Part shown: positions 2,431 to 63,857 of the stretch, one piece after another
Layout: each line of letters opens with the position of its first letter
Numbering within the stretch: the first letter of the stretch is position 1
NCBI GenBank assembly: GCA_963764725.1
Contig: CAVXTM010000002.1
Location: 32,001-96,000 of the forward strand
Reading direction: 5' to 3'
Length of the DNA stretch: 64,000 nucleotides
Source: an uncultured Gammaproteobacteria bacterium
GTDB taxonomy: Bacteria; Pseudomonadota; Gammaproteobacteria; JACCXJ01
The notes under the pieces: model-generated
Seen by the model: only the letters and a program-made list of their open reading frames with translations
The model's database searches: none
Told to the model about the DNA's origin: nothing
Translations under genes and position numbers: made by a program

Positions 2431-2461
2431 ACCAGTCTCCTATAATGATTAGGTCAATAAG

Positions 2462-2529
2462 TAGTATTGACACGATACTATTAAACACCGGTCTTGACTA
2501 CTTGTCAATATAATATTGACTCGATACTA
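2462..2529. promoter_or_regulatory. Two near-identical 19-bp palindromic operators, likely MarR sites
   Basis: TAGTATTGACACGATACTA (2462-2480) and TAATATTGACTCGATACTA (2511-2529) in the AT-rich divergent intergenic region. Confidence 0.7.
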
Positions 2530-2540
2530 TATGCGTCGAG

Positions 2541-3101: not shown

Positions 3102-3224
3102 CGGCAAAGCCATTGGCGTTCTGCACGAAGGGGATCGGGTACTGCGTCGTCATAACACCGTGGGCCGCTGTTGGGAACTGGCTGTGTTCTCGGGACGTTT
3201 TGCGGTCAAAAAAAACTTATCCCC

Positions 3225-5063
3225 TCACCCGACCGCGACGATCGATTCGCTCAAGCGCACCTCTTGAGCACGCTTCAATTCCTTCTCCTCTTCTTCCTGC
3301 TGCAGGGCCCACATGCGCGCATAGGCGCCGCCAAGGTCGATTAGCTCGCGGTGGCTGCCGCGCTCGATGATGCGGCCCTCCTCCATGACGAGAATTTGAT
3401 CCGCGTTGACGATGGTGGACAAGCGATGGGCGATCACCAAGGTCGTGTGGTTCTGCGCCACCTGCCTGAGCTCGGCCTGGATGGTTTTCTCGGTCTTGGA
3501 GTCGAGCGCAGAGGTGGCTTCGTCGAACACCAAGATGCAGGGATTCTTCAAGACGGTGCGCGCGATGGCGACGCGCTGTTTCTCGCCGCCCGAGAGCTTG
3601 AGGCCGCGCTCTCCGACGAGCGTTTCGTATTTGTCGGGCAGCGACTCGATGAAATCGTGGATATGCGCATGCTTGGCAGCTTGAATGATTTCAGCGCGCG
3701 ACGCGCGGGGTTCACCATAGGCGATGTTGTAGTAGATGGTGTCGTTAAAGAGCACCGTATCTTGCGGCACGATACCGATGGCGCGGCGTAGACTTTTCTG
3801 CGTGATCCGGCGAATGTCCTGGTCGTCGATCAGGATGCCCCCACCGCTCACGTCGTAGTAGCGGAACAGCAAGCGCGACAGCGTCGATTTACCCGCGCCG
3901 CTCGTTCCTACTACCGCGACCTTGTGGCCGGCCGGTACTTCGAAGCTCACAGCATGCAGGATCGGGCGCCGCGGGTCATAGGCGAAATCAACACGCTCGA
4001 AACGCACGGCGCCGGGCCCGACGACGAGATCTTTGGCGCCGGGATCGTCTTGAATCTCGGCGTTGATTCCTAGTAGCCTGAACATCTTCTCCATGTCGGC
4101 GAGCGACTGCCTGATCTCGCGATACACCATACCGAGGAAGTTGAGCGGGATGTAGAGCTGGATCATCAGGGTGTTGATCAGCACCAGATCGCCGAGCGTC
4201 ATCGTATGCTGCACGACGCCATCGGCGGCCCGCAACAGGAGCAAGGTCACGCCGGTCGCGATGACCGCGCTTTGGGCGATGTTGAGGCCAGCAAGCGACG
4301 TTTGGCTGCGCACCGAAGCCTGCTCCCAGCGTTGCAGGTTATCGTCGTAACGCCGCGCTTCGAATTCCTCATTGCCGAAATACTTGACCGTCTCGTAGTT
4401 GAGCAGGCTATCGATGGCTTTGGTGTTGGCCTTGGAGTCCATCTCGTTCATCGCGCGGCGGAACTTGGTGCGCCACTCCGTGATGCTGATGGTCAGCACG
4501 ATATAAATGACCAGAGTCCCGAGCGTAATCAGCGCGAACCAGATCTCATATTGGGTGACGAGGATGAGGCCCACGAGCGTCATTTCCAGCAAGGTGGGAA
4601 CGATGCTGAAGATGAGCAAGCGCATCAGGTTTTCGATCCCGCGCGCACCGCGCTCGATATCGCGGGCCACGCCCCCGGTTTGGCGTTCCAGGTGGAAGCG
4701 CAAGCTCAGCGCGTGCAAATGCCGAAATACCTCGACCGCTAGGCGCCGGATTGCGCGCTGCGTGACGCGCGCGAAGACGACGTCTCGGAGATCGGTAAAT
4801 AGCGTGGTCGAGAACCGCAGCAATCCATAGCCGATAAGCAGAAACGCCGGCACCATCAACAGCGCCTTGGGTTGGTTCAGCCCATCGACGATCTGTTTTA
4901 GGACCAGGGGAACCGATACATTGGCAAGCTTGGCGACGATAAGGCACGAGAGCGCCAAGACTAAGCGCCCGCGGTATTCCCACAGATAAGGTAGCAATAC
5001 GCGCAACGCCTTGAGGTCGGCGGGATCGTCAGTCAACGGAGGTCGGCGGGATTCAGAACGCAT
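3225..5063 (-). CDS. ABC transporter, ATM1/HMT1 (ABCB7-like) fused permease/ATPase
   Basis: LSLRFHLERQTGG, DSLLNYETVKYF, Walker A GTSGAGKST, LSGGEKQR, Walker B DEATSALD. Confidence 0.93.
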   Translation of the reverse strand: MRSESRRPPLTDDPADLKALRVLLPYLWEYRGRLVLALSCLIVAKLANVSVPLVLKQIVDGLNQPKALLMVPAFLLIGYGLLRFSTTLFTDLRDVVFARVTQRAIRRLAVEVFRHLHALSLRFHLERQTGGVARDIERGARGIENLMRLLIFSIVPTLLEMTLVGLILVTQYEIWFALITLGTLVIYIVLTISITEWRTKFRRAMNEMDSKANTKAIDSLLNYETVKYFGNEEFEARRYDDNLQRWEQASVRSQTSLAGLNIAQSAVIATGVTLLLLRAADGVVQHTMTLGDLVLINTLMIQLYIPLNFLGMVYREIRQSLADMEKMFRLLGINAEIQDDPGAKDLVVGPGAVRFERVDFAYDPRRPILHAVSFEVPAGHKVAVVGTSGAGKSTLSRLLFRYYDVSGGGILIDDQDIRRITQKSLRRAIGIVPQDTVLFNDTIYYNIAYGEPRASRAEIIQAAKHAHIHDFIESLPDKYETLVGERGLKLSGGEKQRVAIARTVLKNPCILVFDEATSALDSKTEKTIQAELRQVAQNHTTLVIAHRLSTIVNADQILVMEEGRIIERGSHRELIDLGGAYARMWALQQEEEEKELKRAQEVRLSESIVAVG

Positions 5064-48891: not shown

Positions 48892-51189
48892 GTGCTTGGA
48901 AGGGGGCGTGGCAGTGTGAAGGCGGATCAAGCGGATCGAGTGAAGCAGACGGCCCTCGAGTGGCTATCCGTTTTGGCGGGTACGGATCTATTTTCTGATC
49001 TATCGCCATCGGACCTGGAGCTGGTCGCCGGGGAGATGGAGCTTATCTCCTTGTCTCAGGGTCAGTTTCTCATTCGCCAGGAGGATCCCGGCGATAGCCT
49101 TTACGTGATTCTCGAAGGTCAATTCCTGGTTACCCGGAGAAACGATCGGGGCGAGGAGGTTCCTCTCAATCGTGTCGGCACGGGCGCCTCTGTCGGCGAG
49201 ATCGCGCTGGTGACCGGCGAGCGGCGGAGCGCATCGGTTCGTGCCGACTGCGATTCGATCGTTGCTAGGCTCGGCAAGGACGCCCTCGAGCACGTATGCC
49301 GGAGGGCTCCGCAAGTAGCGGCCAGGCTGGCGCGGATCATCGTCGAGCGCTTGCAAAGGGCGGAGCTGCGAAGCTTGCTTTTCTTCGGCGATCAGTTCAA
49401 GGGCATGAGCCAAGCCGTGCTCAAGGATCTGGAAGCGGAGATGGAATTGATGCTTTGTCCGAGCGGCACCTGCCTCATACGCGAGGGAGACGATTGCGAT
49501 GGCAGCTACATCGTCGTGAGCGGCCGCTTGCGTGTTACCCACCAACATGCGGGCGGCGAGCCGCGCGTTGCCACCGAGCTCGGGCGTGGCCAGACGGTCG
49601 GCGAGATAGGGATGCTGACGGGAGGCAAGCGCACGGCGACCGTATGCGCTATTCGTGACACCCTGATGGCCAAGCTATCGGTCGAAGCCTTCGAGGGTCT
49701 ACTACGGAAACATCCTCACGCATTGGTCAAACACTTCGCCGGCGCCGTGATCAACCGGCTTTGGACGCAAACCTTAGGGAAAGCGCGGGACAAGAACAGC
49801 GTGGTCACTATCGCGCTCATCCCGGTCGGCAAGAATGTTCCACTCACGGATTTCAGTCGCTTGTTGGCCGAAGCTCTGTCGGGGCACGGGCCGACCTTGC
49901 TCTTGAACAGCGGCTTGCTCGGTGAGTATCTAAGCTCGAAGGAAATCGCCCATACGCCGCTGGATGATCCGGATAATCTTAGCATAGCCAGCTGGCTAAA
50001 CCATCAGGAGTCCGCGTACCGTTATATTCTCTATCAGACCGATAGCGCACCCTCTGAATGGACCAAGCGCTGCTTGCGTCAAGCCGATCGCGTGCTGCTC
50101 GTGGCCGATGCCGCCTCCTCAGCGCGCAAGGGGGAAATCGAAGAGACTCTCTTGAGCGATCCCCGCTACCGGCCATTACCCAAGAGTCTCGTGATCTTGC
50201 ACCAGGGAAACGTTGCCTGTGAGCGGACCGAGGCCTGGCTGCGCGAAAGAGAGGCGCGTTACCACTACCATGTCTGCCCGTCCGACGCGCACGATATGGC
50301 GCGCTTGGGGCGGCTTGCGAGCGGCAATGGCGTGGGCCTGGTATTGAGCGGCGGCGGAGCGCGTGGGTTCGCTCACATCGGTGCTATCCGCGCGCTTAGG
50401 GAAGCAGGGATCCCCGTCGACAAGGTGGGCGGCAGCAGCATCGGTTCCATCGTGGCCGGCATGACGGCATTGCGCTGGGACCACCGGACGATGATCGATC
50501 AGGCGTGCGCGTTCAATTACCGCATGGACTACACCTATCCCGCGGTGGCCTTGACCACCGGAAACAACATCACCCGCCAGCTAAAGAAGGAGTTCGGCGA
50601 GCAGAAGATCGAGGATCTTTGGATCAGTTTCTTTTGCGTGAGCACCGATTTGAACGCCTCCCGGCAAGCAGTCCACGATCGAGGCCTGCTGTGGAAATAC
50701 GTGCGCGCAAGCATGTCGGTCCCCGGCCTGTTCCCGCCGGTCATCGAAGGGAACCGTTTTCTCGTCGACGGGGCAGTTTTCAACAACATGCCTGTCGATG
50801 TGATGCGCAGCCAGGACGATATCGGCCCCCTGATCGCTTTCGATGTCGGCGCTCCGGTGCGGCTCGAAACAGAAACCCGAATCGAGGGAAGCTTTTCGGG
50901 TTGGCAGGCGTTGACGCGCATGCTCAACCCGGCCGCGCGATCCCTCGGCCTGCCGAGCCTGACCAAAACGCTGATGGCGTCGTGGTTGATCAAGAGCGAT
51001 GAAGCGAAGGAGACCATGCAGAACCTGGCGGACTTCTACCTGCGGTTTCCCGTGCAAGAGTTCGGGTTGCTCGATTTTAGTCGAGTCAAGGAGCTCGCGG
51101 AATGGGGATATGCTTACACGTCCGAGAAACTGGCCGAATGGGACAGGGACTCGGCGGGTCTTCCAAGACTGCATAGCAAAGATGAATGA
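48892..51189 (+). CDS. Two cNMP-binding domains plus patatin-like phospholipase (NTE family)
   Basis: VGEIAL...RRSASV and VGEIGML...RTATV; GGGARG, GSSIG (GxSxG), DGA; start uncertain. Confidence 0.92.
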   Translation: MLGRGRGSVKADQADRVKQTALEWLSVLAGTDLFSDLSPSDLELVAGEMELISLSQGQFLIRQEDPGDSLYVILEGQFLVTRRNDRGEEVPLNRVGTGASVGEIALVTGERRSASVRADCDSIVARLGKDALEHVCRRAPQVAARLARIIVERLQRAELRSLLFFGDQFKGMSQAVLKDLEAEMELMLCPSGTCLIREGDDCDGSYIVVSGRLRVTHQHAGGEPRVATELGRGQTVGEIGMLTGGKRTATVCAIRDTLMAKLSVEAFEGLLRKHPHALVKHFAGAVINRLWTQTLGKARDKNSVVTIALIPVGKNVPLTDFSRLLAEALSGHGPTLLLNSGLLGEYLSSKEIAHTPLDDPDNLSIASWLNHQESAYRYILYQTDSAPSEWTKRCLRQADRVLLVADAASSARKGEIEETLLSDPRYRPLPKSLVILHQGNVACERTEAWLREREARYHYHVCPSDAHDMARLGRLASGNGVGLVLSGGGARGFAHIGAIRALREAGIPVDKVGGSSIGSIVAGMTALRWDHRTMIDQACAFNYRMDYTYPAVALTTGNNITRQLKKEFGEQKIEDLWISFFCVSTDLNASRQAVHDRGLLWKYVRASMSVPGLFPPVIEGNRFLVDGAVFNNMPVDVMRSQDDIGPLIAFDVGAPVRLETETRIEGSFSGWQALTRMLNPAARSLGLPSLTKTLMASWLIKSDEAKETMQNLADFYLRFPVQEFGLLDFSRVKELAEWGYAYTSEKLAEWDRDSAGLPRLHSKDE

Positions 51190-51249: not shown

Positions 51250-53217
51250 CTACCTCGAACCAAGCATCGTGTCATTCCGGATCTTCGTGGTCAGGACGAC
51301 CAACAGATTTGCAAGCAGATTGGGAGACTTCCCGAGAAGGTCCAGGAATACGCGGCGTTCGATCACGAACAATCGGCACGCTTCGGTGGTCGTGGCAGTG
51401 GCTAATCGTGGCCCGCCATCGATAAGCGCAAGCTCGCCCACAGCGTCGCCCGCCTGCCGGATGCCGATCTCGGCGGCATGGCCGGTCCCGTCTTTAACGC
51501 GCAAAGAAACCTTGCCTTCCAAGATGCAGTAGAGCGCGTCCCCCGGATCGCCCTCGCGGAATAGCTCGGCCCCGGCGGGCACCGGGCGCTCCTCCCCGAT
51601 CTCGGCGAGCCTCTCAAACGCTTGTTCGTTGAGGTCGCGGAACAGCGGAACGCTGTGATGCAGCCTGGCGGTTAACCGGGGATGGTAGCTTCGATGCCGG
51701 CCGGTGGGCGCCACGCCCCCCAGCAGAGGCCTGCGTTCGAGCAGCGTCAGGAGATCAGGTGCTTCGGCGCGCATGGCTCGACGAAAGATCCCATGCATCC
51801 AGATCAAGCAGGTGGCCGAAATCACAGTGAGCACTAACCAACAGCTCGCCCAGACACCCGTCCAATCGAGCAGATAGGCAAACGCCATGGGTAGGACGAA
51901 GCCACCCAGGGCGCCGATCAGCCCCACCATGCCGCCGACCGTCCCGACGGCGCTGGGAAATTGCTCCGGAATCATTCGGTAGTCACTGCCCTCGCCGACG
52001 CCCGTCGCGAGACCGAAAATGCATACCAGCAGGGTGAAGATCCAGAGGTTCGCCGGATAGTAGATATTCGTCACGCCGCGCGCCAAGAGTGTATTTTTCT
52101 GCACCGATTCGCCGATCTGGACGACCGACTCCTGCCAGGTCATCTTTTGCACCCATAACATGCTACCGTCGTCGCTATCAGCGAGACTCCGCGCGGGCGG
52201 GGGGAGTAGCGCGTAGGTTTTCTCGCCCACCACTATGCGGTCCTTCGCGACCGAGGTAATCGTTCCGGCTTCGGTAGCGGTGACACCCGGGCCGGGCAGG
52301 CGGCTATCCATTTTGGGGATAGCGAGGAACAGGCAGACAATGGCACAGGTCCAAAACACCCAATTCATGACCGTCCGGGCTCCGCAACGGTCCGACAGCC
52401 AGCCGCCCGCGACGGAAATGATCCCCGAGGGCAGGCTGAATGCGGCTGCGAGCAGGCCGGCTTGGGCGAGGGATAGCTCGTAAACATTGACGGCGTAGGG
52501 AACGAGCCACTGCGCGAGCGCGACGAAGGACCCGGCAACCAAAAAGAAATAGAATCCAATGCGCCAGACCACGATGTCCCGAAGGGGCGCAAATAGCTCC
52601 GGTAACGAGCGCGCGCTAACGTTCGGGGAAACACGGGGCGGAGCGGCGAGATAAAAGAACGCCGCTGATAGGAGCAATAAGCCCGCGTAGATGCGTGGGA
52701 GCAAACGCCAACCATCGAGGTCCGATCCGTGGCTGGTGACCCACTGCAGGAGTTGCGGGGCGAGTACCGTTGTCGCGGCGGCGCCAGCGCTTCCGATGCC
52801 GAAGATCCCGAGCGCGGTGCCCTGCGAGCCCTTTGGAAACCACGCCGATACGTAAGCGAAACCGGCCGCGAAGCTGCCGCCCGCGAAACCGAATGCGAGG
52901 CTCAGCAGAAAAAACTCGGCGAACGAGTCCGCGAGGGAGAGGAAGTACAAGGGCACGGAAACGCCAGCCATGAGGAGCGCGAAAACGCCGCGGCCGCCGT
53001 AACGATCCGCCAGCATACCGAGGGGCACGCGGCTCAAGGCGCCCGTGAGGATAGGCGCGGCAAACAGCCAGCCGATCTCGGTCTTACTGAAGCGAAAAAT
53101 CCCCGCGCTCACGAGATGGGTCACGAGCACCGAGTTGATTACCCAGGCCGCGAAACAAACCCCAAACGCGATCGTGCTGGCGCTCAGCGCGGTCAGGGCG
53201 GCGCGGCGATCAGTCAT
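51250..53217 (-). CDS. NarK/NNP-like MFS transporter fused to a C-terminal cNMP-binding domain
   Basis: PILTGALSRVPLG...DRYGGR, GGSFA.G..YVS.WFP..QG.ALG, VG..GALGGF; C-terminal FREGD.GD..Y...GELALIDG.PR.A. Confidence 0.88.
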   Translation of the reverse strand: MTDRRAALTALSASTIAFGVCFAAWVINSVLVTHLVSAGIFRFSKTEIGWLFAAPILTGALSRVPLGMLADRYGGRGVFALLMAGVSVPLYFLSLADSFAEFFLLSLAFGFAGGSFAAGFAYVSAWFPKGSQGTALGIFGIGSAGAAATTVLAPQLLQWVTSHGSDLDGWRLLPRIYAGLLLLSAAFFYLAAPPRVSPNVSARSLPELFAPLRDIVVWRIGFYFFLVAGSFVALAQWLVPYAVNVYELSLAQAGLLAAAFSLPSGIISVAGGWLSDRCGARTVMNWVFWTCAIVCLFLAIPKMDSRLPGPGVTATEAGTITSVAKDRIVVGEKTYALLPPPARSLADSDDGSMLWVQKMTWQESVVQIGESVQKNTLLARGVTNIYYPANLWIFTLLVCIFGLATGVGEGSDYRMIPEQFPSAVGTVGGMVGLIGALGGFVLPMAFAYLLDWTGVWASCWLVLTVISATCLIWMHGIFRRAMRAEAPDLLTLLERRPLLGGVAPTGRHRSYHPRLTARLHHSVPLFRDLNEQAFERLAEIGEERPVPAGAELFREGDPGDALYCILEGKVSLRVKDGTGHAAEIGIRQAGDAVGELALIDGGPRLATATTTEACRLFVIERRVFLDLLGKSPNLLANLLVVLTTKIRNDTMLGSR

Positions 53218-53517
53218 TACCGCGCCGACGAATGTCCTCTGCCCATGAGTGCATCGTAAGCAATGATTCTTCGGGGCTCAACCCCAGGCGTGTCCGCGCC
53301 GGGCAGCGCCCGCATGCGACATTGATCTCAGCGGGTTGTTCTAGCGGGGCGCTACGCCGCATGGGTGGATTCGGCCGGCAGTCATGCAGCGGCTCGCCCA
53401 CAAGGGGCTTCCACCCGAGCTGACACACCCTGTCTCGGCGAGTCAATGCGATAACCTGCGGGGCCTCTTTTCTGGTATAGTGAAACGCTATCTTTCAACG
53501 AACCACAATGGGGGATA

Positions 53518-54153
53518 ATGATGGCCACAAGTCAAAAATCAGGACCGAACCCCGATCTTCAGGGGACTAAAGTAGCGGCCGCAAGCCTCGCAGGCGGAGC
53601 CCTGCCCGGCGTCGATGCCGTTGGCGTCGATAAGATCCGGGACCTCTTGTTTGGCAACCAGATGCAGGATTACGACCGCCGTTTTGTCACCTTGGAAGAA
53701 CGGTTCCTGCAGAAGTTTAGGGAGATTGAGTCGGAGATCACCCGCGGCTTGAGCACCCTGGAGACTTCGATGAAGAAGCAACTCGAATCCACAGCGACGC
53801 AACTGCGCGAAGAAAAGGACCTGCGAACGGATGCCGATAGGGACCTTGAGCGGAGTCTCAGAGACCATACCCAAGCGTTGGACAAGCGCCTTGGACAGCT
53901 TTCCGATCACCTGGCGCGCGTCGAACGCGAGGTCACGGAAAGGCTGAGCAAGGAATCGCAAGATCTCCGGGACGAGCTAAAGACCAAGAGCGAGGAGTTG
54001 CGCCTTACGGCCGCCAAGATGTTTGCCGAGCTCGGCAACGTTAAGACCGATCGCAACCTACTCGCCGGCCTATTCATCGAAGTGGCGAAATGTCTGAATC
54101 AGGATTTTGGCCCCAAGCTCCTTGCCAAGGGCGGGGACGGTGAGCATTCCTGA
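53518..54153 (+). CDS. Coiled-coil protein, first gene of the GTPase/OmpA operon
   Basis: VDKIRDLLFGNQM.DY..RF..LE, long heptad region, KTDR..LA.LF.EVA. Confidence 0.8.
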   Translation: MMATSQKSGPNPDLQGTKVAAASLAGGALPGVDAVGVDKIRDLLFGNQMQDYDRRFVTLEERFLQKFREIESEITRGLSTLETSMKKQLESTATQLREEKDLRTDADRDLERSLRDHTQALDKRLGQLSDHLARVEREVTERLSKESQDLRDELKTKSEELRLTAAKMFAELGNVKTDRNLLAGLFIEVAKCLNQDFGPKLLAKGGDGEHS

Positions 54154-56005
54154 GCCTCTATCCGCGTGGCTTGGTCCAGAGTCCGAGAAGCTAAAGGCCC
54201 AACGCGAGTTACTTGCCGGCCTTTGCCTCGAGGCGGCGAAATGCCTCAATCAGGATCTCGCCGCGCACTTGCCCGGCGAAGGCGCGCTGGATCCGCGCCT
54301 TAACGAGCTGCGCCGGATCCTCCTGGAGCGCGAACTAGCTACCCTCGCGCGGCTCGAACAATGTTTGGAGAACCCCGAAGAGCTCGCCGCTGCAGTCAGT
54401 CACATCCTTCCTTCGGCGATTCTTAAAGCCGCTGCCCGCGACGGACGACTGAGCGAGGTGCTCGCGCCGACCTTCGAGGGGGCTGCCCAGTCATCCATTA
54501 GAAAGGACCCGCGCACGTTGGTAAGTATCCTCCATCCCCTGATGGGACCGGCCATCCGCAAATCCATCGCCGAAGCCATCGGGAGCACTGTGCAGTCGCT
54601 GAACGAGATGTTGAAGCACAGCCTTTCCTGGAAAGGCCTGAAATGGCGTCTGGAGGCGTATCGATCAGGGACCTCCTTTGCCGAGATCGTGCTGAAGCAT
54701 ACCTTGATTTATCGGGTCGAGCATATCTTTCTGATTCATAAGCACACAGGACTGCTCTTGCAACATGTGGCCGCCGACAGTGCGGTGACCCAGGATCCCG
54801 AGATCGTCTCCTCGATGTTGACGGCGATCCAGGATTTCGTGCGCGACTCGTTCTCGGGGACCGCAAACGCCGACCTCGATGCGTTACGGCTCGGGGAGCT
54901 CGTAGTCTGGTGCGAGCAAGGCCCTTACGCGTTTCTGGTCGCAGTCATCCGCGGCAATCCCCCGGAGGCGCTCCATGATGTCCTGGGCGATGCCTTGAGC
55001 ACTGTCCATGCAGAGCAGGGGCAGGCCCTGGCAGGCTTCGATGGAGATACCGCCGTTTTCCGGGCGCTGCAAGAGCAGCTCGCCGACTGCCTTAAGGTCC
55101 AGGCGAAACCCCCCGCCCAAGGGACGTCCCCCGCTCTTTGGGTCCTGTTCCTCCTTCCCGTTGCGTTGGCCTTGTTCGGCGGCTACTGGCTCTACCAGCG
55201 TTACCAGGACGACCGCCAGTGGGCCGCTTACGTCGAGCGGTTGCAGGCCGAGCCCGGCATCATTGTCACCGGTTTCGAGCGGCGCAACGGCACCTGGTAC
55301 CTGACCGGGCTTCGCGATCCCCTGGCCGCTGACCCGGAGGCACTGATGGTCGAAGCGAAGCTGATCCCAGCGAGAGTCTCGGCGCGCTGGGAGCCCTACC
55401 AGGCGCTGCACCCAGCGTTCGTCTTGAAGCGAATAGGGGCTATCCTGGCGCCCCCGTCCAGCGTGGCGCTCGCGCTCGAAGGCGATACCATACGCGCTCA
55501 TGGCTCCGCACCCCACGCGTGGATCGAGCAGGCGCGCCGCCTCGGACGGACACTGCCTCCCGGCTCGCCCGCGCTCGACCTGGGTTCGGTGAAAGACCTC
55601 AACCACCTAGAGCAGCTAGAGTTCGACAGACTGCGTAAGGCCATCGCATCGACGCTGATTCACTTCGCCCGAGATGATCCTCTTCCTGCTCCGGATCAAG
55701 AAGCCGCGATCGATGCTGTGGCTTCTGAGCTTCGCGAGTTAAGGTTACTTGCACAGCTCTTGGGGCTCACGGCGCGCGTCACGATTGTTGGCCATGCGGA
55801 CGCCACCGGCAAGAGCCGGGCGAACCTCGCGCTTAGCATGGGACGCGCCGAGGCCGTGCGCTCGCTGCTAGGCGCCAAGGGTGTCGACACCGATTTCGTA
55901 TTCATACGCGCCGCGGGTCCTCTAGAACCCTTACAGGCGGAAGCCTCGGATACCGATCGCGCTCGCAACCGACGCGTGTCCTTCACCGTGAGCCTCGTAG
56001 AATAA
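54140..56005 (+). CDS. Membrane-anchored OmpA/MotB-domain protein with large cytoplasmic N-terminal region
   Basis: YRVEHIFLIH..TGLLL and MLTAIQDFV.DSF region, one TM helix, C-terminal GHADATG....N..LS..RA...RNRRV. Confidence 0.88.
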   Translation: MSIPEPLSAWLGPESEKLKAQRELLAGLCLEAAKCLNQDLAAHLPGEGALDPRLNELRRILLERELATLARLEQCLENPEELAAAVSHILPSAILKAAARDGRLSEVLAPTFEGAAQSSIRKDPRTLVSILHPLMGPAIRKSIAEAIGSTVQSLNEMLKHSLSWKGLKWRLEAYRSGTSFAEIVLKHTLIYRVEHIFLIHKHTGLLLQHVAADSAVTQDPEIVSSMLTAIQDFVRDSFSGTANADLDALRLGELVVWCEQGPYAFLVAVIRGNPPEALHDVLGDALSTVHAEQGQALAGFDGDTAVFRALQEQLADCLKVQAKPPAQGTSPALWVLFLLPVALALFGGYWLYQRYQDDRQWAAYVERLQAEPGIIVTGFERRNGTWYLTGLRDPLAADPEALMVEAKLIPARVSARWEPYQALHPAFVLKRIGAILAPPSSVALALEGDTIRAHGSAPHAWIEQARRLGRTLPPGSPALDLGSVKDLNHLEQLEFDRLRKAIASTLIHFARDDPLPAPDQEAAIDAVASELRELRLLAQLLGLTARVTIVGHADATGKSRANLALSMGRAEAVRSLLGAKGVDTDFVFIRAAGPLEPLQAEASDTDRARNRRVSFTVSLVE

Positions 56006-56026
56006 GCCAGGGAGCAGGCGCGCGCG

Positions 56027-56521
56027 ATGCTGCAAAAGAAGATCTGCATGCTGGGTTTTTTCGGCGTCGGTAAGACCAGCCTGGTGCAGCGTTATGTCTG
56101 CAGCGTATTCTCGGATACTTATCTTACAACGGTGGGGGTCAAGATCGACAAAAAGACCGTAACCGTGAGGGAGCAAACCCTCAATCTGTTGTTGTGGGAT
56201 ATCGCCGGGGCGGATGACGTTTCCGCGCTGCGTACCATCTATCTACGCGGCGCGGCCGGCTATCTGCTGGTGGCCGATGGCACGCGTCCCGAGACACTGA
56301 AGGCCGCGCAGTCGCTGCAAGGACAGGTGGTGTCGGAACTAGGACCGGTGCCGTTCGTGGTGCTGCTGAATAAGCACGATCTTGCCGGAGAGTGGCGGAT
56401 CTCCGAGCACGATGTTGTTGAGCTGACCGGCGCCGGTTGGACGGTCTATACCACGAGTGCTCGGACCGGCGAAGGTGTAGAGGCTGCCTTTCAAACACTC
56501 GCCGAGTGTATCCTTGGGTAA
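56027..56521 (+). CDS. Ras/Rab-like small GTPase
   Basis: G1 GFFGVGKTS, G2 YLTTVG, G3 WDIAG, G4 NKHD, G5 TSARTG. Confidence 0.93.
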   Translation: MLQKKICMLGFFGVGKTSLVQRYVCSVFSDTYLTTVGVKIDKKTVTVREQTLNLLLWDIAGADDVSALRTIYLRGAAGYLLVADGTRPETLKAAQSLQGQVVSELGPVPFVVLLNKHDLAGEWRISEHDVVELTGAGWTVYTTSARTGEGVEAAFQTLAECILG

Positions 56522-57752
56522 AGCGATATTCGATCTGCCGGCCAGCGTCGCAAGCTCTTTGTGCTCGCTGGTCACGACGGAACGCGCCCCGGCCTATCTG
56601 ATTGTCGATGGGTCTCTGACCTTGAGAGGAGCCGGTGGCAGTCTCCAAAACTATGGACTGGAGGCGCTAGCGCTTGGCTGCCCGGCCACCGAACAAGCGG
56701 TGTTTCTCGAAGGACTTCTGCCGTTTGGTGACGCGCCGCTCGTCATGAAGGCGGTGGAGATGCCTTCTGGACGGGCCGCCGACCTTCATCTCCATCCTGC
56801 AGAGGAGGGTGGGTGGATCCTGCTCCTAGATTGCACTGCGGAGCGCGCGGAAACACAGCGCTTGCAGCAGAGAGCTTACGATATGACGCTATTGCGCCAG
56901 CGAGAAGCCCGGCTCAAAGAGGAGCTTGCGGCGGCCTTCGCGGCGCTGGAACGCAGCAATGAGGAACTGAAGCGACTGAGGGTAAAGCTCGAAGAGGAAA
57001 ACTTGCGCTTAAGCGCCGAACTTGAAGTGGCTCGCCGCCTCCAGGCAATGTTACTCCCTACCCCGGAGGAGCTCCGCCACGTTCAGTATGTAGATGTCGC
57101 TTGCTTCATGCAGCCTGCAGCCGAGGTCGGGGGCGATTACTACGATGTGCTGCAGTATGGCGGGCACACGTTCATCGCTATTGGAGACGTCACCGGCCAC
57201 GGATTGCATAGCGGGGTGGTGATGTTAATGGCGCAGGTTGGAGTGCGCGCGCTCATCGCCACTAAAGACAGCGATCCGGTCCGATTCTTTCAGGTATTGA
57301 ATCGAACGCTTCATGATAACATCGCCCGCATGCGAGGGGACAAGAGCCTGAGCCTTGCAGTCCTCGATTTCAAGGACGGAGAGTTTCGTGTTAGCGGCCA
57401 ACACGAGCAAATCATCGTCGTCAGGCGGGGAGGTCAGGTCGAGCTCGTGGACACGCTCGACCTCGGTTTCCCGATCGGCTTGTATGACGACATCGCTTCC
57501 TTTGTTCACGAGAAGAAGGTGCGGCTTGGCGCGGGTGACGGTGTGGTTCTGTACACCGACGGTTTCACCGAGGCGGAGAACCCCGCCGGAGAGCAATACA
57601 GCTTAGAAAGGTTGTGCGAGGCCGTGAGGCTCAATTGGGCGAAGCCGGTTGAAGCCATCAAGGACGCTATAGTCGCCGACGTGCGAGCGTTTATCGACGT
57701 GCAAACTGTCTACGACGACTTGACGTTAGTCGTGGCCAAACAGAAGCGGTAG
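56514..57752 (+). CDS. PP2C (RsbU/SpoIIE-type) phosphatase with PAS-like N-terminus and coiled coil
   Basis: A..LQ.MLLP, VGGDYYD, IGDVTGHG, LYTDG.TEA, DDLTLVV. Confidence 0.92.
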   Translation: MGKAIFDLPASVASSLCSLVTTERAPAYLIVDGSLTLRGAGGSLQNYGLEALALGCPATEQAVFLEGLLPFGDAPLVMKAVEMPSGRAADLHLHPAEEGGWILLLDCTAERAETQRLQQRAYDMTLLRQREARLKEELAAAFAALERSNEELKRLRVKLEEENLRLSAELEVARRLQAMLLPTPEELRHVQYVDVACFMQPAAEVGGDYYDVLQYGGHTFIAIGDVTGHGLHSGVVMLMAQVGVRALIATKDSDPVRFFQVLNRTLHDNIARMRGDKSLSLAVLDFKDGEFRVSGQHEQIIVVRRGGQVELVDTLDLGFPIGLYDDIASFVHEKKVRLGAGDGVVLYTDGFTEAENPAGEQYSLERLCEAVRLNWAKPVEAIKDAIVADVRAFIDVQTVYDDLTLVVAKQKR

Positions 57753-57770
57753 GTGTCTGTTCGGCGTACA

Positions 57771-58343
57771 ATGGCCGAGTTTTTTGGCAACTTTACGGAA
57801 AGGGACGTGCGCGACGCGGAATGTCTTGAGCTCCGTTTTTCCGCTACCTCGATTCCTTTGCGGCAGCGGTGGCGAAACAATCGCCTATCGGCGGATTTTC
57901 TTAGTGATTGCTTGAAATCCTTTTTTCCTGGTGAGGATACTGGAAGCGTAGGTAGGCGCGAAGCAGCGAAGAGCGCCGTGAGTTACATCGCCAACGAGTT
58001 ATTGGAGAACGCGATGAAGTTCACGCATGCACCGTCGGAGTACCCGGTTACCATCGGTATGCATCTCGATCGGAACCAGCTGCGATTCTATGTTACGAAC
58101 AGTGTAGATGCCGAAGCGGAGCAAGGCTTGAGAGCGATGATTCGAAGGCTGCTGACAGAAGAGACCAAGGAGTTGTTTATCAAACAACTGGAGAGCAGCG
58201 GGGAAGGACGAGGCTCGGGGTCCGGTTTGGGTTATCTGACGATGATTAATGATTATGGCGCCGAGCTCGCATGGAAGCTCGAACCCCATGAAGGTGATTC
58301 GCGGGTAATGAAGGTCACGACCCTCGTGAAGCTACCCCTATGA
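57771..58343 (+). CDS. Anti-sigma-factor-like HATPase protein (slr1658-like)
   Basis: L.QRWRNN.LSADFL, NELLENAMKF, SGLG.LTMINDY. Confidence 0.8.
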   Translation: MAEFFGNFTERDVRDAECLELRFSATSIPLRQRWRNNRLSADFLSDCLKSFFPGEDTGSVGRREAAKSAVSYIANELLENAMKFTHAPSEYPVTIGMHLDRNQLRFYVTNSVDAEAEQGLRAMIRRLLTEETKELFIKQLESSGEGRGSGSGLGYLTMINDYGAELAWKLEPHEGDSRVMKVTTLVKLPL

Positions 58344-58361
58344 AGCGCGTGTAGCGTTGCT

Positions 58362-58703
58362 ATGGAAATAATTCAACAAGACTACCAGATCAGATATGAC
58401 CCGCACGCGAGCACGGTCATATGCTCGGGGTCGTTTCGCTTAACCGGCGACGAATACGCGTCCATTATCGAGATCCTGAATGCAGCGGCGGATGCAAAGC
58501 CCTGCGAGCTCACGCTAGACGTGACCGGACTTCAGTTCCTCAACAGCTCAGGGATACATACCCTGTCTAAGTTCGTACTGCGTGTGCGCGGGCACAATAC
58601 GACTCGGGTCACGGTTAGAGGCACTAGCAAATGTCCCTGGCAGCAAAAATCATTGGCCAACCTGGAGCGGCTTCTACCCGGCCTACGACTGGAGCTGGAA
58701 TGA
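58362..58703 (+). CDS. STAS-like anti-anti-sigma protein (slr1659-like)
   Basis: LD...LQFLNSSGI..LSKFV, PWQ.KSL.NL.RL.P. Confidence 0.85.
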   Translation: MEIIQQDYQIRYDPHASTVICSGSFRLTGDEYASIIEILNAAADAKPCELTLDVTGLQFLNSSGIHTLSKFVLRVRGHNTTRVTVRGTSKCPWQQKSLANLERLLPGLRLELE

Positions 58704-60112
58704 TTCCGGAACCTCAAAGAGACCCCGCATTGTTGGCTGACGATCAAGTGGCGGAGGTGCAGTGTCTTCGGCGGCGAATTGAAGAGCTTGAGCAAGACAA
58801 GCGGGATCTGGAAATGGTGCTGGAGATGACTACAGAGCATTCGGATAACGTTGAGGAAGAGCTGCATACCAAGGCCGAGGAGGCGCTGCGGGAAAGCGAA
58901 AGGAGGTTACGGGTCATCGTGGAAGCGACTCCGATCCCCGTCGTGATCAGCCGGGAAGCGGATGACCAAATCGTATACGCAAACGCCATGGCAGGCCCTC
59001 TGCTAAGCCTGCCGACCCGAACCCTGGTGGGCCGGACTATAACGGAGTTTTACCATGATCCCAGCGCTCAACAGGAGTTGTTGGAGGTGTTGGCGGTTGA
59101 GGGGCACGTCGATCATCGGGAGGTCCGATTCCAAGGTGCGGATGGCAGGGTGTTTTGGGTGGACGTCTCGATGCGCCTATTGGATTTTAACGGTGAAGCG
59201 AGCCTGCTGAGTGCTTGGCACGACATTACCCATCTCAAGGAGCTCAATTTGGCCGCTAGCTGTTTCGTACCGAGCGAATACCTAGCATTTCTCGAGAAGG
59301 ATAGTCTAGTCGATGTTCACTTGGGTGATCACGTCAGCGGGGAGATGACAGTGATGTTTTCGGACCTACGCTCTTTCACCTCGCTCTCGGAGGATATGAC
59401 GTCGCAGGAAAACTTCGACTTCGTCAATGCTTATCTCGGGCGGGTGAGCCCTGTCATTCGGCAACACCGCGGGTTCATCGTTAAATATCTTGGCGACGGC
59501 ATCATGGCCATTTTCCCGAGAAGCGCCGATGATGGCGTTCAGGCCGGGATCGAGAAACTGAATCAGGTCAACGAATACAATGCCTATCGAAAAACCAAAC
59601 GCCGCTTTCCAATACAGATCGGCATAGGAGTCAACACAGGACATATGATGGTCGGCATGGTGGGAGAGCGGCATCGGATGCAAGGCGATGCGTTTTCCGA
59701 CCATGTAAATCTGACCTCCCGACTGGAAGCCCTGACCAGACACTACAGCATCTCGTACATCATTACTGCGGCTACCAAGGAACGATTGGCAGACCCGGGG
59801 CGTTACGATATCCGCTTTCTGGACAAGGTTCAGCTAAAAGGCAAATACAAGCCCTTGGATCTGTACGAGGTTTACAGCGCGGATCTGCCCGAGTTCCGAT
59901 CACTGAAGCAAGAGACCCAGGAGGAATACGAACAGGCCTTAGCACATTTCTATGCACGGAAGTTCGCCGAAGCGCAATCCATGCTGTTTCGGGTGTTGCA
60001 GAAAAACCCAAGGGATAAAGTTGCCTGGCACCATCTGATAAAGACTACCGAGTGTCTTGATAACGGATTTCCTGAGAACTGGACCGGGGTCACAGTGATG
60101 GCGAGCAAATAG
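58700..60112 (+). CDS. PAS-domain class III adenylate cyclase with TPR-like tail
   Basis: VMFSDLRSFT, VKYLGDG, DAFSD.VNL.SRLE; Lys/Asp pair suggests ATP specificity; ATGA-coupled. Confidence 0.92.
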   Translation: MIPEPQRDPALLADDQVAEVQCLRRRIEELEQDKRDLEMVLEMTTEHSDNVEEELHTKAEEALRESERRLRVIVEATPIPVVISREADDQIVYANAMAGPLLSLPTRTLVGRTITEFYHDPSAQQELLEVLAVEGHVDHREVRFQGADGRVFWVDVSMRLLDFNGEASLLSAWHDITHLKELNLAASCFVPSEYLAFLEKDSLVDVHLGDHVSGEMTVMFSDLRSFTSLSEDMTSQENFDFVNAYLGRVSPVIRQHRGFIVKYLGDGIMAIFPRSADDGVQAGIEKLNQVNEYNAYRKTKRRFPIQIGIGVNTGHMMVGMVGERHRMQGDAFSDHVNLTSRLEALTRHYSISYIITAATKERLADPGRYDIRFLDKVQLKGKYKPLDLYEVYSADLPEFRSLKQETQEEYEQALAHFYARKFAEAQSMLFRVLQKNPRDKVAWHHLIKTTECLDNGFPENWTGVTVMASK

Positions 60113-60369
60113 GCTGGCGTCGTTTCTTAACGATTATTTCGATACGCTCGCACAACCGCCTCTACCGAGCTATCCCGGCGACGGTCCGGCGCGTTTCTTC
60201 CTCTGCGAGCGCTATCAAAGCGGAGTAGCCGAACCCGAAGGTCCGCGCATCATCCGCATGGACGCCAAGTAAGGGACGTGGATTTTCAATGCCGTCGCGG
60301 CTCTTCCTACTGGACCGCCGGGGCACAACGCTAGTATGCGCCACACACATCGCGTCGTAGGATCCCCGA

Positions 60370-61942
60370 ATGCTCAATGGTAACGGCAAATCCCTCGAAT
60401 CCTGGATCTGGGACGCCGCCTGTTCCATCCGCGGCGCGAAGGACGCGCCGAAGTACAAGGATTTCATCCTCCCGCTGATCTTCGCCAAGCGCCTGTGCGA
60501 CGTGTTCGATGACGAGCTGAACCGCATCGCCCAGGGGGTAGGGGCGGGTCTAGTACCCGCCCAAGCGCGCGCTAAGGCCTTCAAGCTAGTCAAGCACGAC
60601 AAGAAACTCGTGCGCTTCTACCTGCCGCTGGAGCCGAAGACTCCGGATGACGCGGTCTGGTCGGTTATCCGCACGCTCTCGGACAAGATCGGCGAGCAGC
60701 TCACCACCCACCTGCGCGCCATCGCCGACGCCAACCCGTTGCTCAAGGGCATCATCGACCGCGTGGACTTCAACGCCACCACCCACGGCCAGCGCGACCT
60801 CGACGACGACCGCCTCTCGAACCTGATCGAGTCAATCAGCGCCAAACGGCTCGGCCTCAATGACGTAGAGTCAGACATCATCGGCCGCAGCTACGAATAC
60901 CTCATCCGCAAGTTCGCGGAAGGCTCAGGCCAGAGCGCGGGCGAGTTCTATACCCCCGCCGAGGTAGCCCTCGTTATGGCCCGCATCATGGATCCCGAGT
61001 CGGGCATGGACGTGTACGACCCCTGCTGCGGCTCCGCCGGCCTGCTCATCAAGTGCCGCCTCGTATTCGACGAGAAGATGAAGCTACGCGCAAGACGAAC
61101 CCGCGCCCGCTCCGTGCTACGGCCAGGAAAACGAGCCCGGCACCTGGGCCATGGCCAACATGAACATGATCATCCATGACATGGAAGGCGAGATTCAGAT
61201 TGGCGACACCTTCCGCAAGCCAAAATTCCGCAAGGGCAACCGCCTCCAGACCTTCGACCGCGTGGTGGCCAATCCCATGTGGAACCAGACCGAGTTCAAG
61301 GAGAAGGACTACGACGCCGACGAGCTCGACCGCTTCCCCAAGGGCGCGGGTTACCCCGGAAGCAAGGCCGACTGGGGCTGGATACAGCACATCCTCGCGA
61401 GCCTGAAGCCCAACGGCCGCGCCGCCGTGGTCCTCGACACCGGCGCCGCCTCGCGCGGCTCCGGCAACGCCAACACCAACAAGGAAAAAGACGTGCGCCG
61501 CTGGTGCGTGGAGCAGGACCTGATCGAGGGCGTGCTCTACCTGCCGGAAAACCTCTTCTACAACACCACCGCGCCGGGCATCGTCATCGTGCTCAACAAG
61601 GCCAAGCCGAAGGAGCGCCAGGGTAAGCTGTTCCTGCTCAACGCCAGCCGCGAGTTCGTGAAGGGCGACCCGAAGAACTACATTCCGGAAGACGCCATCG
61701 CCCGCATCGCCGACACCTTCAACGGGTGGAAGGAAGTGGACAAGTATTCGCGAATCGTCACCCGCGAGGAGATCGCCAAGAACGACTACAACATCTCTCC
61801 GAGCCGCTACATCCACACGGGCGCAAGGCGAGGAATACCGGCCGATTCGGGAGATTGTGGAGGAGTTGGAGGCACTGGAAGAGGAGGCGAAGGAAAGCGA
61901 CGCGGCGCTAAAACGGATTCTGGCGGCTATCGGGAGCTATAG
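60370..61942 (+). pseudogene. hsdM: Type I R-M methyltransferase HsdM with frameshifts near 61100 and 61820 (real or sequencing error)
   Basis: IWDAACSIRG, G..YEYLI.KFA, GEFYTP, YDPCCGSAG, YGQE, ANPMW, LPENLFYNT. Confidence 0.88.
60538..60562 (+). repeat. GTAG-type REP hairpin inside hsdM
   Basis: GTAG-GGGCGGGT-CTAGT-ACCCGCCC, perfect 8-bp stem. Confidence 0.7.
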
Positions 61943-62538: not shown

Positions 62539-63857
62539 AATGGACGCACTCGCGACAACCGAACTCGGCTCACTCCCAACGGATTGGCGAGTCCAGCGAT
62601 TCGATTCACTGTTTGCCGTCCAGCAAGGTAAGCAGGTCTCAAAGAGGAACCGTCTCGGAGAAAACCAGCGCCCATTTCTGCGCACAAAGAATGTCTTCTG
62701 GGGTCGCCTCGACTTGGCGGACCTCGACGAGATGCACTTCACCGAGGCGGAAGAAAGCATCGACTGAGCCTTGAAACCCGGCGACTTGCTCGTCTGTGAG
62801 GGCGGCGACATCGGGCGTACCGCTATCTGGCGGGGACGAGCTGCCCGCTGTTACTAACCAGAACCACCTTCACCGCGCTCGCCTGCGGGATGATGTCGCG
62901 GACTCCCTTTTCGCGCTCTATTGGCTATCGGTATGCCTGGTCGAGGTTGGCAGCGATTATTTTGGGCGCGGCAACGTCACAACGATTCCGAATCTCTCAC
63001 AGTCAAAGCTTTGTGAGCTTCCGAGTTTGCGCGTTCCACCTCTCCCCGACCAGCGCAAGATCGCGGCAGTGTTGGGGCTGGTGCAGCGAGCGATCGAGCA
63101 GCAGGAGCGGCTGCTTCAGCTCACCGCCGAACTGAAAAAGACGCTCCTCCACCAACTCTTCACCCAAGGCCTGCGCGGCGAACCCCAAAAACAAACCGAA
63201 ATCGGCCCCGTGCCGGAGAGTTGGGAAGTGGTGGAACTCATCAGCGCCGTCGAACAGATCGACTATGGGTTTTCAGCACCTATTCCGAAAACCCCGCCAG
63301 AGAACGGCATCAAGATCGTGAGCACAGCCGACATCACTAAAGATGGTCGCTTGCTCTACGGCAAAATTCGCGGAATCGAAGCACCGGAGAAAACTGTGAA
63401 GAGACTAGCCCTGCGCACGGGCGATGTGCTGTTCAACTGGCGTAACTCGGCGGAGCTGATCGGGAAGACCGCAGTGTTTCAGGAACAGGACGAGGCTCAT
63501 GTGTTTGCCTCGTTCATTCTTCGCATCCGATGCGGCGAAAAGAAGTCCCACAACTTCTATCTCGCACACCTCATGAATCACTTCCGGGAGAAGGAGGTTT
63601 TCATCAAGCTCGCACGTCGCGCGGTGAATCAGGCGAATTACAACCGGAATGAAATTTCCGTCCTAAACATTCCGCTCCCGTCTTACCAAGAGCAGCGAGA
63701 TATTGCGGATATCATCGCGGTGGTGGATGCAAAGATTGATCTTCAACGTCGCAGACACGCGGCGCTCACCGCTTTGTTCCGCACCCTGCTGCACCAGTTG
63801 ATGACGGCGCAGATTCGCGTCCACGATCTCGACCTACCGGAATTAGAGACCGAGTGA
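62531..63857 (+). pseudogene. hsdS: Type I R-M specificity subunit HsdS, with at least one frameshift and further indels in TRD1
   Basis: TELG.LP.DW, PPL.DQ.KIA..L, KQTEIGPVPESW, PLP...EQ..IA, LL.QLMT.QIRV. Confidence 0.88.

Follow-up and report, generated by a model that had tools for sequence, protein, structure and literature searches.

The stretch of DNA analysed here, called the window below, is 64,000 nucleotides (nt) long and comes from an uncultured Gammaproteobacteria bacterium (assembly GCA_963764725.1, contig CAVXTM010000002.1, positions 32,001 to 96,000 of the forward strand). Between positions 53518 and 60112 of the window the open reading frame (ORF) listing holds seven ORFs on the + strand, all in the same orientation, and Pfam and NCBIfam searches found in them the domains that an initial annotation of this DNA, made from the letters alone, had named. 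By our results this operon is the product of a fusion between two known modules, a cassette built around a Ras-like GTPase of the Rup type and a phosphatase/kinase/STAS-like/cyclase module, and the join lies inside the fourth gene. We refer to the genes and their products as g1 to g7, and the features of the operon are as follows.

53518..54153, + strand: g1, a 211-amino-acid (aa) cytoplasmic protein of coiled-coil type, Rup cassette
54140..56005, + strand: g2, a 621-aa inner-membrane protein with an OmpA domain
54707..55114, + strand: predicted longin-like domain of g2, residues 190-325 from the GTG start (AlphaFold2 model, Foldseek, VIA-align)
55133..55195, + strand: single transmembrane helix of g2, ALWVLFLLPVALALFGGYWLY, read from the sequence
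55217..55603, + strand: periplasmic domain of g2 (BLAST and alignment with longer homologues)
55733..55972, + strand: OmpA-like peptidoglycan-binding domain of g2 (PF00691, 4.2e-12, 46.7 bits vs a cut-off of 27.2)
56027..56521, + strand: g3, a 164-aa Rup-type Ras/Rab-like GTPase (Ras, 1.4e-28)
56514..56879, + strand: residues 1-122 of g4, the putative Rup-facing PAS-like domain and the start of a signalling helix
56880..57752, + strand: residues 123-412 of g4, a coiled-coil linker and a PP2C (SpoIIE) domain of the slr1658-associated lineage (SpoIIE, 4.4e-35)
57771..58343, + strand: g5, slr1658 family, a putative GHKL-type Ser kinase (alternative start GTG 57753)
58362..58703, + strand: g6, an slr1659-family STAS-like protein (NF047705, 131 bits)
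58700..60112, + strand: g7, 470 aa, with an N-terminal helical stalk motif, a PAS domain, a class III adenylate-type cyclase domain and a short C-terminal tail

The genes are tightly packed when their junctions are computed from the starts that homologues support best. The stop of g1 at 54153 lies beyond the GTG start of g2 at 54140, an overlap of 14 nt; the ORF listing gives a TTG at 54107 as the start of g2, and homologues begin at the GTG. A gap of 21 nt separates g2 from g3, g3 and g4 overlap by 8 nt, g4 and g5 are 0 nt (GTG 57753) or 18 nt (ATG 57771) apart, g5 and g6 are separated by 18 nt, and g6 and g7 share a 4-nt ATGA overlap at 58700. The g7 ORF can open at 58631, and the start at 58700 is favoured because a relative (L177) has a stop just ahead of the Met that aligns with it. 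A scan for consensus promoters and terminators gave sites no more numerous than in shuffled sequences. RNA-library contigs that are 90-99% alike span portions of each of the seven genes, and those of run X18 bridge the junctions g1/g2, g2/g3, g4/g5 and g6/g7; such libraries may contain DNA, and contigs cannot prove a transcript, so that they are a weak hint. Near-identical DNA is present in metagenome runs from cave, sediment and soil. One DNA contig, in run X1, differs from the window by a 26-nt insertion in the g5-g6 spacer, at 58357.

We assign g1 to g3 and the first ~122 residues of g4 to the "Group 1 Rup" cassette, a neighbourhood defined by comparative genomics (PMC4316618; Wuichet & Sogaard-Andersen 2014) which the window matches. 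According to that paper the four genes encode a coiled-coil protein, a protein with an unknown domain, a transmembrane segment and an OmpA domain, a Rup GTPase that lacks the catalytic Gln, and an output protein, for which an invariant Gln of the N-terminal region was proposed to act in trans; its authors add that no Rup system has been characterised. The group is named Rup1 in a preprint (bioRxiv 10.1101/2024.02.28.582541), in which the Rup1 GTPases are the bacterial group clustering with eukaryotic Rab, Ras, Rho and Ran. The initial annotation had described a GTPase trio, and these genes are all present, but the unit is really the four-gene cassette, with the output protein as its fourth member. 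The window has in common with the published group the four-gene neighbourhood, the Gln-less Rup GTPase and the invariant Gln in the N-terminal region of the output protein. The typical outputs named in the part of PMC4316618 that is available are GGDEF/EAL proteins and histidine kinases, whereas the output in the window is a PP2C from another module; that same text gives no fold for the g2 domain and the N-terminal domain of the output, which model here as longin-like and PAS-like, respectively. In our literature search no functional work was found on Rup with OmpA or longin.

The g2 protein has more than 3782 homologues at E<=1e-5, and its domain is found in 45/401 genomes sampled from the phylum. 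Our survey of the cassette covered 80 genome loci that hold a g2 homologue; they belong to Pseudomonadota, Acidobacteriota, Cyanobacteriota, Actinomycetota and others. Immediately upstream of this gene there is a g1 homologue in 80/80 loci, and immediately downstream of it a g3 homologue in 77/80; the N-terminal part of g4 is matched next in 73/80. Two of the three loci missing g3 are contig ends and the third is L062, an Acidobacteriota contig in which (2459-4595) a g4-like gene comes straight after the g2 homologue, the GTPase gene being absent from that place. The seven loci missing a g4 N-terminal match comprise three with divergent kinase-type fourth genes that can still be aligned (L041, L074, L076), three contig ends (L068, L071, L077) and L062. 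For g1 no Pfam family lies above its cut-off, and its coiled-coil character rests on sub-threshold coiled-coil-type matches and a helical, charged sequence. A motif in the C-terminal helix of g1, KTDRxxLAxLFxExAxxLN, is echoed at the N-terminus of g2 (window 54020-54230); this repeat occurs in the proteobacterial and acidobacterial forms of g2 and is absent from the cyanobacterial and Blastocatellia-type forms.

The third gene is present as a single copy in its own genome, is 56-65% identical over 38 homologues from several phyla, and has Rabs as its nearest solved relatives, Rab23 being the best (3e-22). As the initial annotation had it, the GTPase carries all the G motifs (G1 GFFGVGKTS, switch-I TT, G3 DIAG, G4 NKHD, G5 SAR) and lacks the catalytic Gln. 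The residue after DxxG is Gln in 0/39 aligned family members, Glu being nearly invariant there, and is Ala in the window. Among 39 fourth-gene proteins, a sample biased towards relatives of the window's g2, the outputs are SpoIIE (23), cyclase (12), hybrid kinase (2) and sigma-54 activator (1). The N-terminal domain of g4 stays constant behind these varying outputs, with Q119 invariant in 39/39 and Q118 in 36/36 (codons 56865-56870).

Other arrangements of the cassette were also seen. In two betaproteobacterial Rup loci (L002 13665-15778, L034 13666-15833) the PP2C output gene is followed directly by a 140-aa RsbW-like HATPase_c_2 protein, with a 565-583-aa transporter of the Xan_ur_permease family also after it; this may be another way in which the Rup cassette feeds a partner switch. 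On a low-GC metagenome contig (L180 1444-6936) a Rup GTPase lies between two proteins that carry the Rup adaptor domain. One of them is a HisKA-HATPase-REC hybrid; the second, of 178 aa, has no output domain. At a distance of 2 kb, on the opposite strand, there is a triad-type PP2C.

The order of parts in g2 is a cytoplasmic helical region, the longin-like domain, one transmembrane helix, a periplasmic domain of ~130 aa and the OmpA-like domain. Its W345 is invariant in 8 homologues. In an AlphaFold2 model of the cytoplasmic part, built from 33 sequences, residues 190-325 form a block with a predicted local distance difference test score (pLDDT) of 61-84 and the order beta-beta-alpha-beta-beta-beta-alpha-alpha, which contains the segments YRVEHIFLIH and TGLLL. 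Every Foldseek match to this block at E<=1e-3 is a longin or roadblock protein (AP sigma subunits, TRAPP, Mon1-Ccz1, and MglB including 3t12_C). In a VIA-align comparison with 48,161 chains the longin domain of Sec22 (3egd_C) aligns with Z 13.8 and a root-mean-square deviation (rmsd) of 2.6 over 124 aligned residues, MglB has Z 9.0, and all 50 rows listed contain a longin or roadblock domain. A Pfam search of this region gave no longin or roadblock match at the sequence level. We therefore assign a longin-like fold, new here, to the modelled cytoplasmic part of g2, and the suggestion in the initial annotation that YRVEHIFLIH..TGLLL could belong to such a regulator holds in the model. The arrangement of a small Ras-superfamily GTPase beside a protein of longin/roadblock fold is one that the window, as modelled, has in common with MglA/MglB and with Rab and its Mon1-Ccz1 and TRAPP partners; it differs from them in that the longin-like domain sits in a peptidoglycan-anchored membrane protein and has no family match at the sequence level. 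The same annotation had called the GTPase switch possibly polar, for which we found no evidence.

The periplasmic domain of g2 is present once in the window and in 2-3 tandem copies in longer homologues. An 885-aa homologue from Mesorhizobium gives three BLAST matches to it, three homologues of ~750 aa hold one extra copy, and the forms of ~1020 aa probably hold still more. We had considered that the longer homologues (885-1021 aa) might be fusions of g1 and g2; this was ruled out, the extra length being tandem copies of the periplasmic domain. In two genomes of the same class the g2-domain matches (G373:C1:3486362-3487312, G019:C3:2599298-2600224) are each broken by one in-frame TAA, and these may therefore be pseudogenes.

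The N-terminal domain of g4 modelled well (36 sequences, pLDDT 93.8). It superimposes on the PAS domain of ThkA with Z 10.5 and rmsd 2.0 over 82 aligned residues, all 50 rows listed are PAS domains, and it is followed by a long helix that carries QQRAYD. On the model, the GTPase-facing domain of g4 is PAS-like, an assignment that is also new here. In predictions of a complex between g3 and residues 1-150 of g4, with GTP and Mg included, the interface score ipSAE was 0.87 in 3/3 runs, and the best of 3 controls reached 0.02; the same mark was reached by 58/80 solved complexes and by 2/110 mismatched pairs in the calibration. Contact agreement between the runs was 100% and the pLDDT of the partner was 91. 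The predicted interface comprises the P-loop (residues 12-13), switch I (32-40) and switch II (63 and 71-76) of g3 and residues 59-68, 76-82 and 111-129 of g4, and its tightest pair is T34 of g3 with Q119 of g4. The PAS-like domain of g4 is thus predicted to clamp the switch regions of g3 with its invariant Gln. The predicted complex supports binding of g3 and g4, without proving it.

In our reading g4 would be the GTPase-activating protein (GAP) of g3, and g2 would load or hold the GTPase. The roles could be reversed: g2 would then be the GAP through its longin/roadblock-like domain, in the manner of MglB acting on MglA, and the N-terminal domain of g4 would be only an effector or exchange factor. 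Longin and roadblock platforms serve as GAPs as well as guanine nucleotide exchange factors (GEFs), and roadblock proteins of the MglB type are among the structural matches of g2 (Z 9.0; 3t12_C). The invariant Gln is a residue of g4 and not of g2, though, and in the model it faces switch I and the P-loop of g3; g2 is matched best by longin domains, the GEF subunits of Mon1-Ccz1 and TRAPP among them, rather than by MglB. We consider the reversal of roles very improbable.

The rest of g4 and g5 to g7 we assign to a PP2C/slr1658/slr1659/PAS-cyclase module that is common in cyanobacteria and that, judging from its sequence, is built like SiaABCD. The initial annotation had proposed a trio resembling a partner switch that ends in an adenylate-type cyclase and not in a sigma factor, and this description is borne out by the NCBIfam matches and the cyclase alignment. 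g5 belongs to the slr1658 family (NF052618, 227.4 bits vs a cut-off of 200; NF047703, 208.4 vs 100) and g6 to the slr1659 superfamily (NF047705, 131 bits vs 100), the Pfam STAS family falling narrowly under its cut-off in g6 (20.5 vs 22.6). In the FLNSSGI motif of g6, F59, L60, N61, S62, G64 and I65 are invariant in 17/17 sequences and S63 in 16/17; the codon of Ser62 is at 58545-58547. A search of solved structures by sequence gave one match to g6, at chance level (E 0.71, ribosomal protein L4). g7 matches PF00211 (Guanylate_cyc, 6.9e-19) and PAS, with Pfam families of no other kind matched, and among solved structures it is closest to class III cyclases from bacteria. Aligned to 2w01, g7 has a Lys in ivKylGDG and an Asp in gDafsdhVN where the 2w01 chain has Glu and Gly, at positions which we take to be those setting the preference for ATP or GTP. 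On this alignment, with Lys and Asp as the pair that specifies the substrate, we identify g7 as a class III cyclase of the adenylate type. No sigma-factor family was matched by Pfam in the seven operon proteins or in seven scanned neighbours; in this, and in a g5 that lies under the HATPase_c cut-off, the window differs from the sigma-factor partner switches RsbU/V/W and SpoIIE/AA/AB.

The slr1658-family gene is present as a single copy in the genome of the window, and the family is found above cut-off in 9/401 genomes sampled from the phylum and in 27/151 cyanobacterial genomes. At the other proteobacterial slr1658 loci, PP2C, slr1658 and slr1659 are adjacent in 8/8, the PP2C is 46-49% identical to residues ~145-411 of g4, and a GGDEF-EAL or cyclase gene lies nearby. 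The PP2Cs of L113 and L117, the two that were scanned, carry dCache-HAMP, and that of L112 shows SpoIIE only. Upstream of the dCache-HAMP-PP2C at L113 (11210-14836) and the equivalent places of L114-L116 there is another gene that resembles slr1658 weakly (~175 aa), together with genes for a methyltransferase of 392 aa and a GGDEF-EAL protein of 580-590 aa. In cyanobacteria slr1659 adjoins slr1658 in 20/20 loci, and a PP2C of the triad type (44-58% identical) is found in 17/20, 14 of these at most 300 nt upstream of slr1658. A full-length g7 orthologue (37-39%) follows slr1659 in seven of the 20, and four more have a g7-type N-terminus. Overall, the identity of g5, g6, g7 and the PP2C portion of g4 to the cyanobacterial clusters (NF052618, NF047703, NF047705) is 37-58%, the gene order being the same, and metagenome relatives of the second half reach 52-70%. 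The input domains of the triad PP2C vary in these clusters (HAMP, Amt-PAS, REC, HisKA-REC, GAF), whereas the Rup-facing domain is found only in the lineage of the window.

SiaABCD of Pseudomonas aeruginosa is the closest working analogue of g4 to g7, and was missing from the initial annotation. According to the accessible parts of the papers on it, SiaA and SiaB set the phosphorylation of SiaC (PMC7647112) and SiaC binds the stalk of SiaD (PMC8457831). The shared order is a PP2C, a small kinase, a STAS-like phosphoprotein and a cyclase with an N-terminal stalk, as far as those texts describe it, and the phosphoprotein has a Ser/Thr motif (NSS) at the place equivalent to that in g6. The two systems differ in output (GGDEF in SiaABCD, a class III adenylate-type cyclase with PAS in the window) and in the input of the PP2C (a membrane/HAMP sensor in SiaABCD, a predicted GTPase-binding PAS-like domain in the window). 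They are also distant in sequence. g4, g5 and g6 lie far below the SiaA/SiaB cut-offs; g4 scores 25.5 bits against the SiaA-type PP2C model NF038263 (cut-off 700), with the PP2C fold present. An hhalign comparison of slr1658 with SiaB (probability 80.5%, E 1.3e-5, 102 columns) fits distant homology. That of slr1659 with SiaC is unsupported (probability 6.9%, E 5e-3), with only three SiaC sequences, and the NSS motifs align. With a distant SiaB and an unsupported SiaC, the module would therefore work like SiaABCD without being a member of the Sia families.

A stalk motif of ~40 residues, K.DLE..LE.TTEHSD (58748-58873 in g7), heads whichever protein comes after slr1659, be it a PAS-cyclase, a cyclase of another type, a PAS-only protein or a GAF protein, and is often duplicated. 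Because SiaC binds the SiaD stalk in the available account (PMC8457831), we suggest that this motif, which is new here, is likely to be the docking site of slr1659.

A phosphorylation cycle as in SiaABCD presupposes that g5 is a kinase, and two observations would allow another reading, in which g5 is a pseudokinase or an anti-factor-like binder and the trio works by sequestration, or in which the target of g6 is not the cyclase. The first is that g5 falls under the cut-offs of HATPase_c (20.2 vs 26.4 bits) and SiaB (NF038262, 22 vs 85), that no canonical DxGxG box is seen in it, and that a sequence search of solved structures gave no relative for it; on its scores and the missing box, g5 could therefore be a non-catalytic binder. 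The second is that in 9/20 cyanobacterial loci no g7-type protein comes after slr1659, from which it follows that the cyclase is not an obligate partner. On the other side, the N-box of g5, NELxEN..K (N75, E76, E79, N80, K83), and its S151/G154 motif are invariant in 17/17, the Ser motif of g6 is likewise invariant, and nearly every locus with the pair has a PP2C as well. Such a companion would be pointless with no phosphate to remove, which weighs against sequestration alone. We regard this reading as unlikely, and prefer a kinase-phosphatase cycle acting on g6.

The two modules meet inside g4. In a maximum-likelihood tree computed for 32 PP2Cs from their last 235 residues, those of the window and of a near-identical locus, L001, group with 8 slr1658-linked PP2Cs (support 100/99), and a long branch separates this group from 22 other Rup-linked PP2Cs. 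The PP2C of a metagenome contig, L174, is 70% identical to g4 from residue 123 to the end and not at all before, with the break directly after QQRAY; the contig also holds slr1658 (63%), slr1659 (66%) and the cyclase (52%). By the tree and the break at residues 122/123, g4 is therefore a chimera, in which a Rup adaptor has been joined to a triad PP2C, and the fusion of the two known modules, as read from these sequences, is new here. The PP2C of L174 (997-2637), the closest relative of the window's second half, has a different N-terminal domain of ~110 aa and is preceded by a 124-aa ORF that by eye resembles a truncated globin.

The join is rare. A metagenome scan with g4 led to 80 fetched loci, and the best 39 (L172-L210) were inspected. 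Among these only L172 (96%) and L173 (94%) match g4 over its full length, with all seven genes, and the other 37 match the PP2C part only. The fusion is thus known from four near-identical records (the window, L001, L172 and L173), and the nucleotide identity between L001 and the window (94.5%) is limited to 53433-60116. g5 to g7 were found in one of the 80 Rup genome loci, most Rup loci with a PP2C output ending at the PP2C, and a view of these genes as a regular part of other Rup loci was dropped on that count. In the phylum sample, 4/45 genomes with the g2 domain also hold slr1658 above cut-off, and the two halves are linked in one of these four, the genome of the window, and lie on separate contigs in G064, G260 and G389. 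We also rejected a recent arrival of g5 to g7 from cyanobacteria: the drop in composition is small, closer relatives are found in contigs that do not look cyanobacterial (L174, 63-70%), and we claim no donor.

This rarity could mean that the modules are adjacent but independent, the Rup cassette driving the PP2C on a substrate elsewhere and slr1658, slr1659 and the cyclase answering only the PAS domain of the cyclase. In 21 other Rup loci with a PP2C output, what comes after the PP2C is for the most part a gene on the opposite strand or an unrelated one, which suggests that Rup PP2Cs normally act on unlinked substrates, and the halves are unlinked in the three other genomes that hold both. Against independence, the PP2C of the window is of a lineage that adjoins slr1658 in 8/8 and 17/20 loci, there is no second PP2C in the cluster by Pfam, and g4 to g7 overlap or lie 0-18 nt apart. 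The initial annotation had named scarce linkage of the halves in other genomes among the things that would refute it, and this refutation holds in part, the halves being rarely linked (1/80 genome loci, 2/39 inspected metagenome loci, 1/4 genomes with both); the link is nonetheless a fusion inside g4. Such a physical fusion, as read from the sequence comparisons, is stronger evidence of coupling than co-occurrence, and we think independence improbable.

The surroundings of the operon bear on its output. Upstream of g1 the window holds two candidate receptors of cyclic AMP (cAMP), both with cyclic-nucleotide-binding (cNMP) domains by Pfam.

48892..51189, + strand: protein with two cNMP-binding domains, an NTE P-loop and a patatin-like phospholipase domain, candidate cAMP receptor
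51250..53217, - strand: major facilitator superfamily (MFS) transporter with a C-terminal cNMP-binding domain, divergent from g1, candidate cAMP receptor

Just downstream of the operon in L001, outside the shared nucleotide stretch, are a cNMP-patatin gene (61% identical) and one for a cNMP-PP2C. L172 mirrors the flanks of the window, including the MFS-cNMP arrangement, and L173 those of L001, including the downstream cNMP-patatin gene. Since cNMP-receptor neighbours recur in both lineages, they fit a cAMP output. Downstream of the operon, hsdM, a type I restriction-modification methylase gene, is split at 60370-61942 into overlapping ORFs (60370-61179, 61151-61942) that jointly span one N6_Mtase profile, which makes a frameshift or rearrangement likely; hsdS comes after them, at 62796-63857, and in L172 the parts of hsdM are ~190 nt apart.

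The module identities, the fusion point, the folds and the predicted g3-g4 interface were computed. From them we propose, as the account that we think rather probable, a two-tier cascade in which a Rup GTPase tier feeds a SiaABCD-like switch that controls cAMP. The OmpA domain of g2 would tie this inner-membrane protein to peptidoglycan in the periplasm, and g2 with g1 would offer g3 a longin-like platform in the cytoplasm. On an envelope cue this platform would load or hold g3, as a GEF or a scaffold. GTP-bound g3 is predicted to bind, through switch I and II, the PAS-like domain and signalling helix of g4. Q119 of g4 would enter the nucleotide pocket of g3, and g4 may therefore be both effector and in-trans GAP, as the complex predicts. 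By analogy with SiaABCD, the PP2C of g4 would remove phosphate from g6 at the Ser of FLNSSGI and the g5 kinase would restore it. Unphosphorylated g6 may then dock on the N-terminal stalk of g7 and turn cAMP synthesis on, a step suggested by the analogy and by motif conservation. The cAMP would be read by the neighbouring cNMP-binding phospholipase and transporter. We infer all the biochemical activities, which way the regulation runs, that g2 acts as a GEF and that g6 docks on g7, and the sign of each step is a guess. A bolder view, which we offer tentatively and would sooner doubt than assert, is that the Rup cassette is a bacterial counterpart of the eukaryotic pair of a Rab and its longin GEF, in which a longin platform held in the membrane and tethered to the cell wall loads the Rab-like GTPase, with a PAS-like adaptor that supplies the Gln in trans and plugs onto any output; the recombination of this adaptor, at residue 122/123, onto the phosphatase of a SiaABCD-like switch would show this plugging in, and an envelope cue would be turned into cAMP.

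Besides the sub-threshold scores of g5 and the cyanobacterial loci that have no g7-type protein, several points weigh against this cascade. The model of the cytoplasmic part of g2 is poor overall (mean pLDDT 57.8). The g3-g4 prediction is unlike its calibration in that custom alignments were used and GTP and Mg were present. The hhalign comparison fails to tie slr1659 to SiaC. The break in composition between g4 and g5 is only small, with GC content falling from 0.57-0.63 to 0.53-0.54 and that of third codon positions from 0.68-0.73 to 0.60-0.64. The four records of the fusion are near-identical, and the comparative support for coupling is therefore that of one evolutionary event. Our literature search found no experiment on any Rup system and no functional work on slr1658/slr1659; nor did it find functional work on DUF6272 or a partner switch acting on a class III cyclase, the mentions of adenylate cyclase in PMC9127174 being two-hybrid methods.

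Both parent modules were known before, the Rup cassette only computationally and the second module only as family models and through its SiaABCD analogue. New here are the fusion, the stalk motif, the longin-like and PAS-like folds and the interface predicted at the switch regions. Support for the coupling comes from a single fusion event, in a lineage that is narrow, and if the wiring is an accident of that lineage the lessons on the two parent modules still hold. The fold assignment would link a bacterial Rab-like GTPase to a longin platform, and the model offers a precise interface, that between switch I of the GTPase and Q119 of the PAS-like adaptor. For the otherwise opaque Rup cassette cAMP would be a readable output, and the principle of SiaABCD, in which a phospho-switch protein activates a cyclase via its stalk, would be extended from cyclic di-GMP to cAMP.

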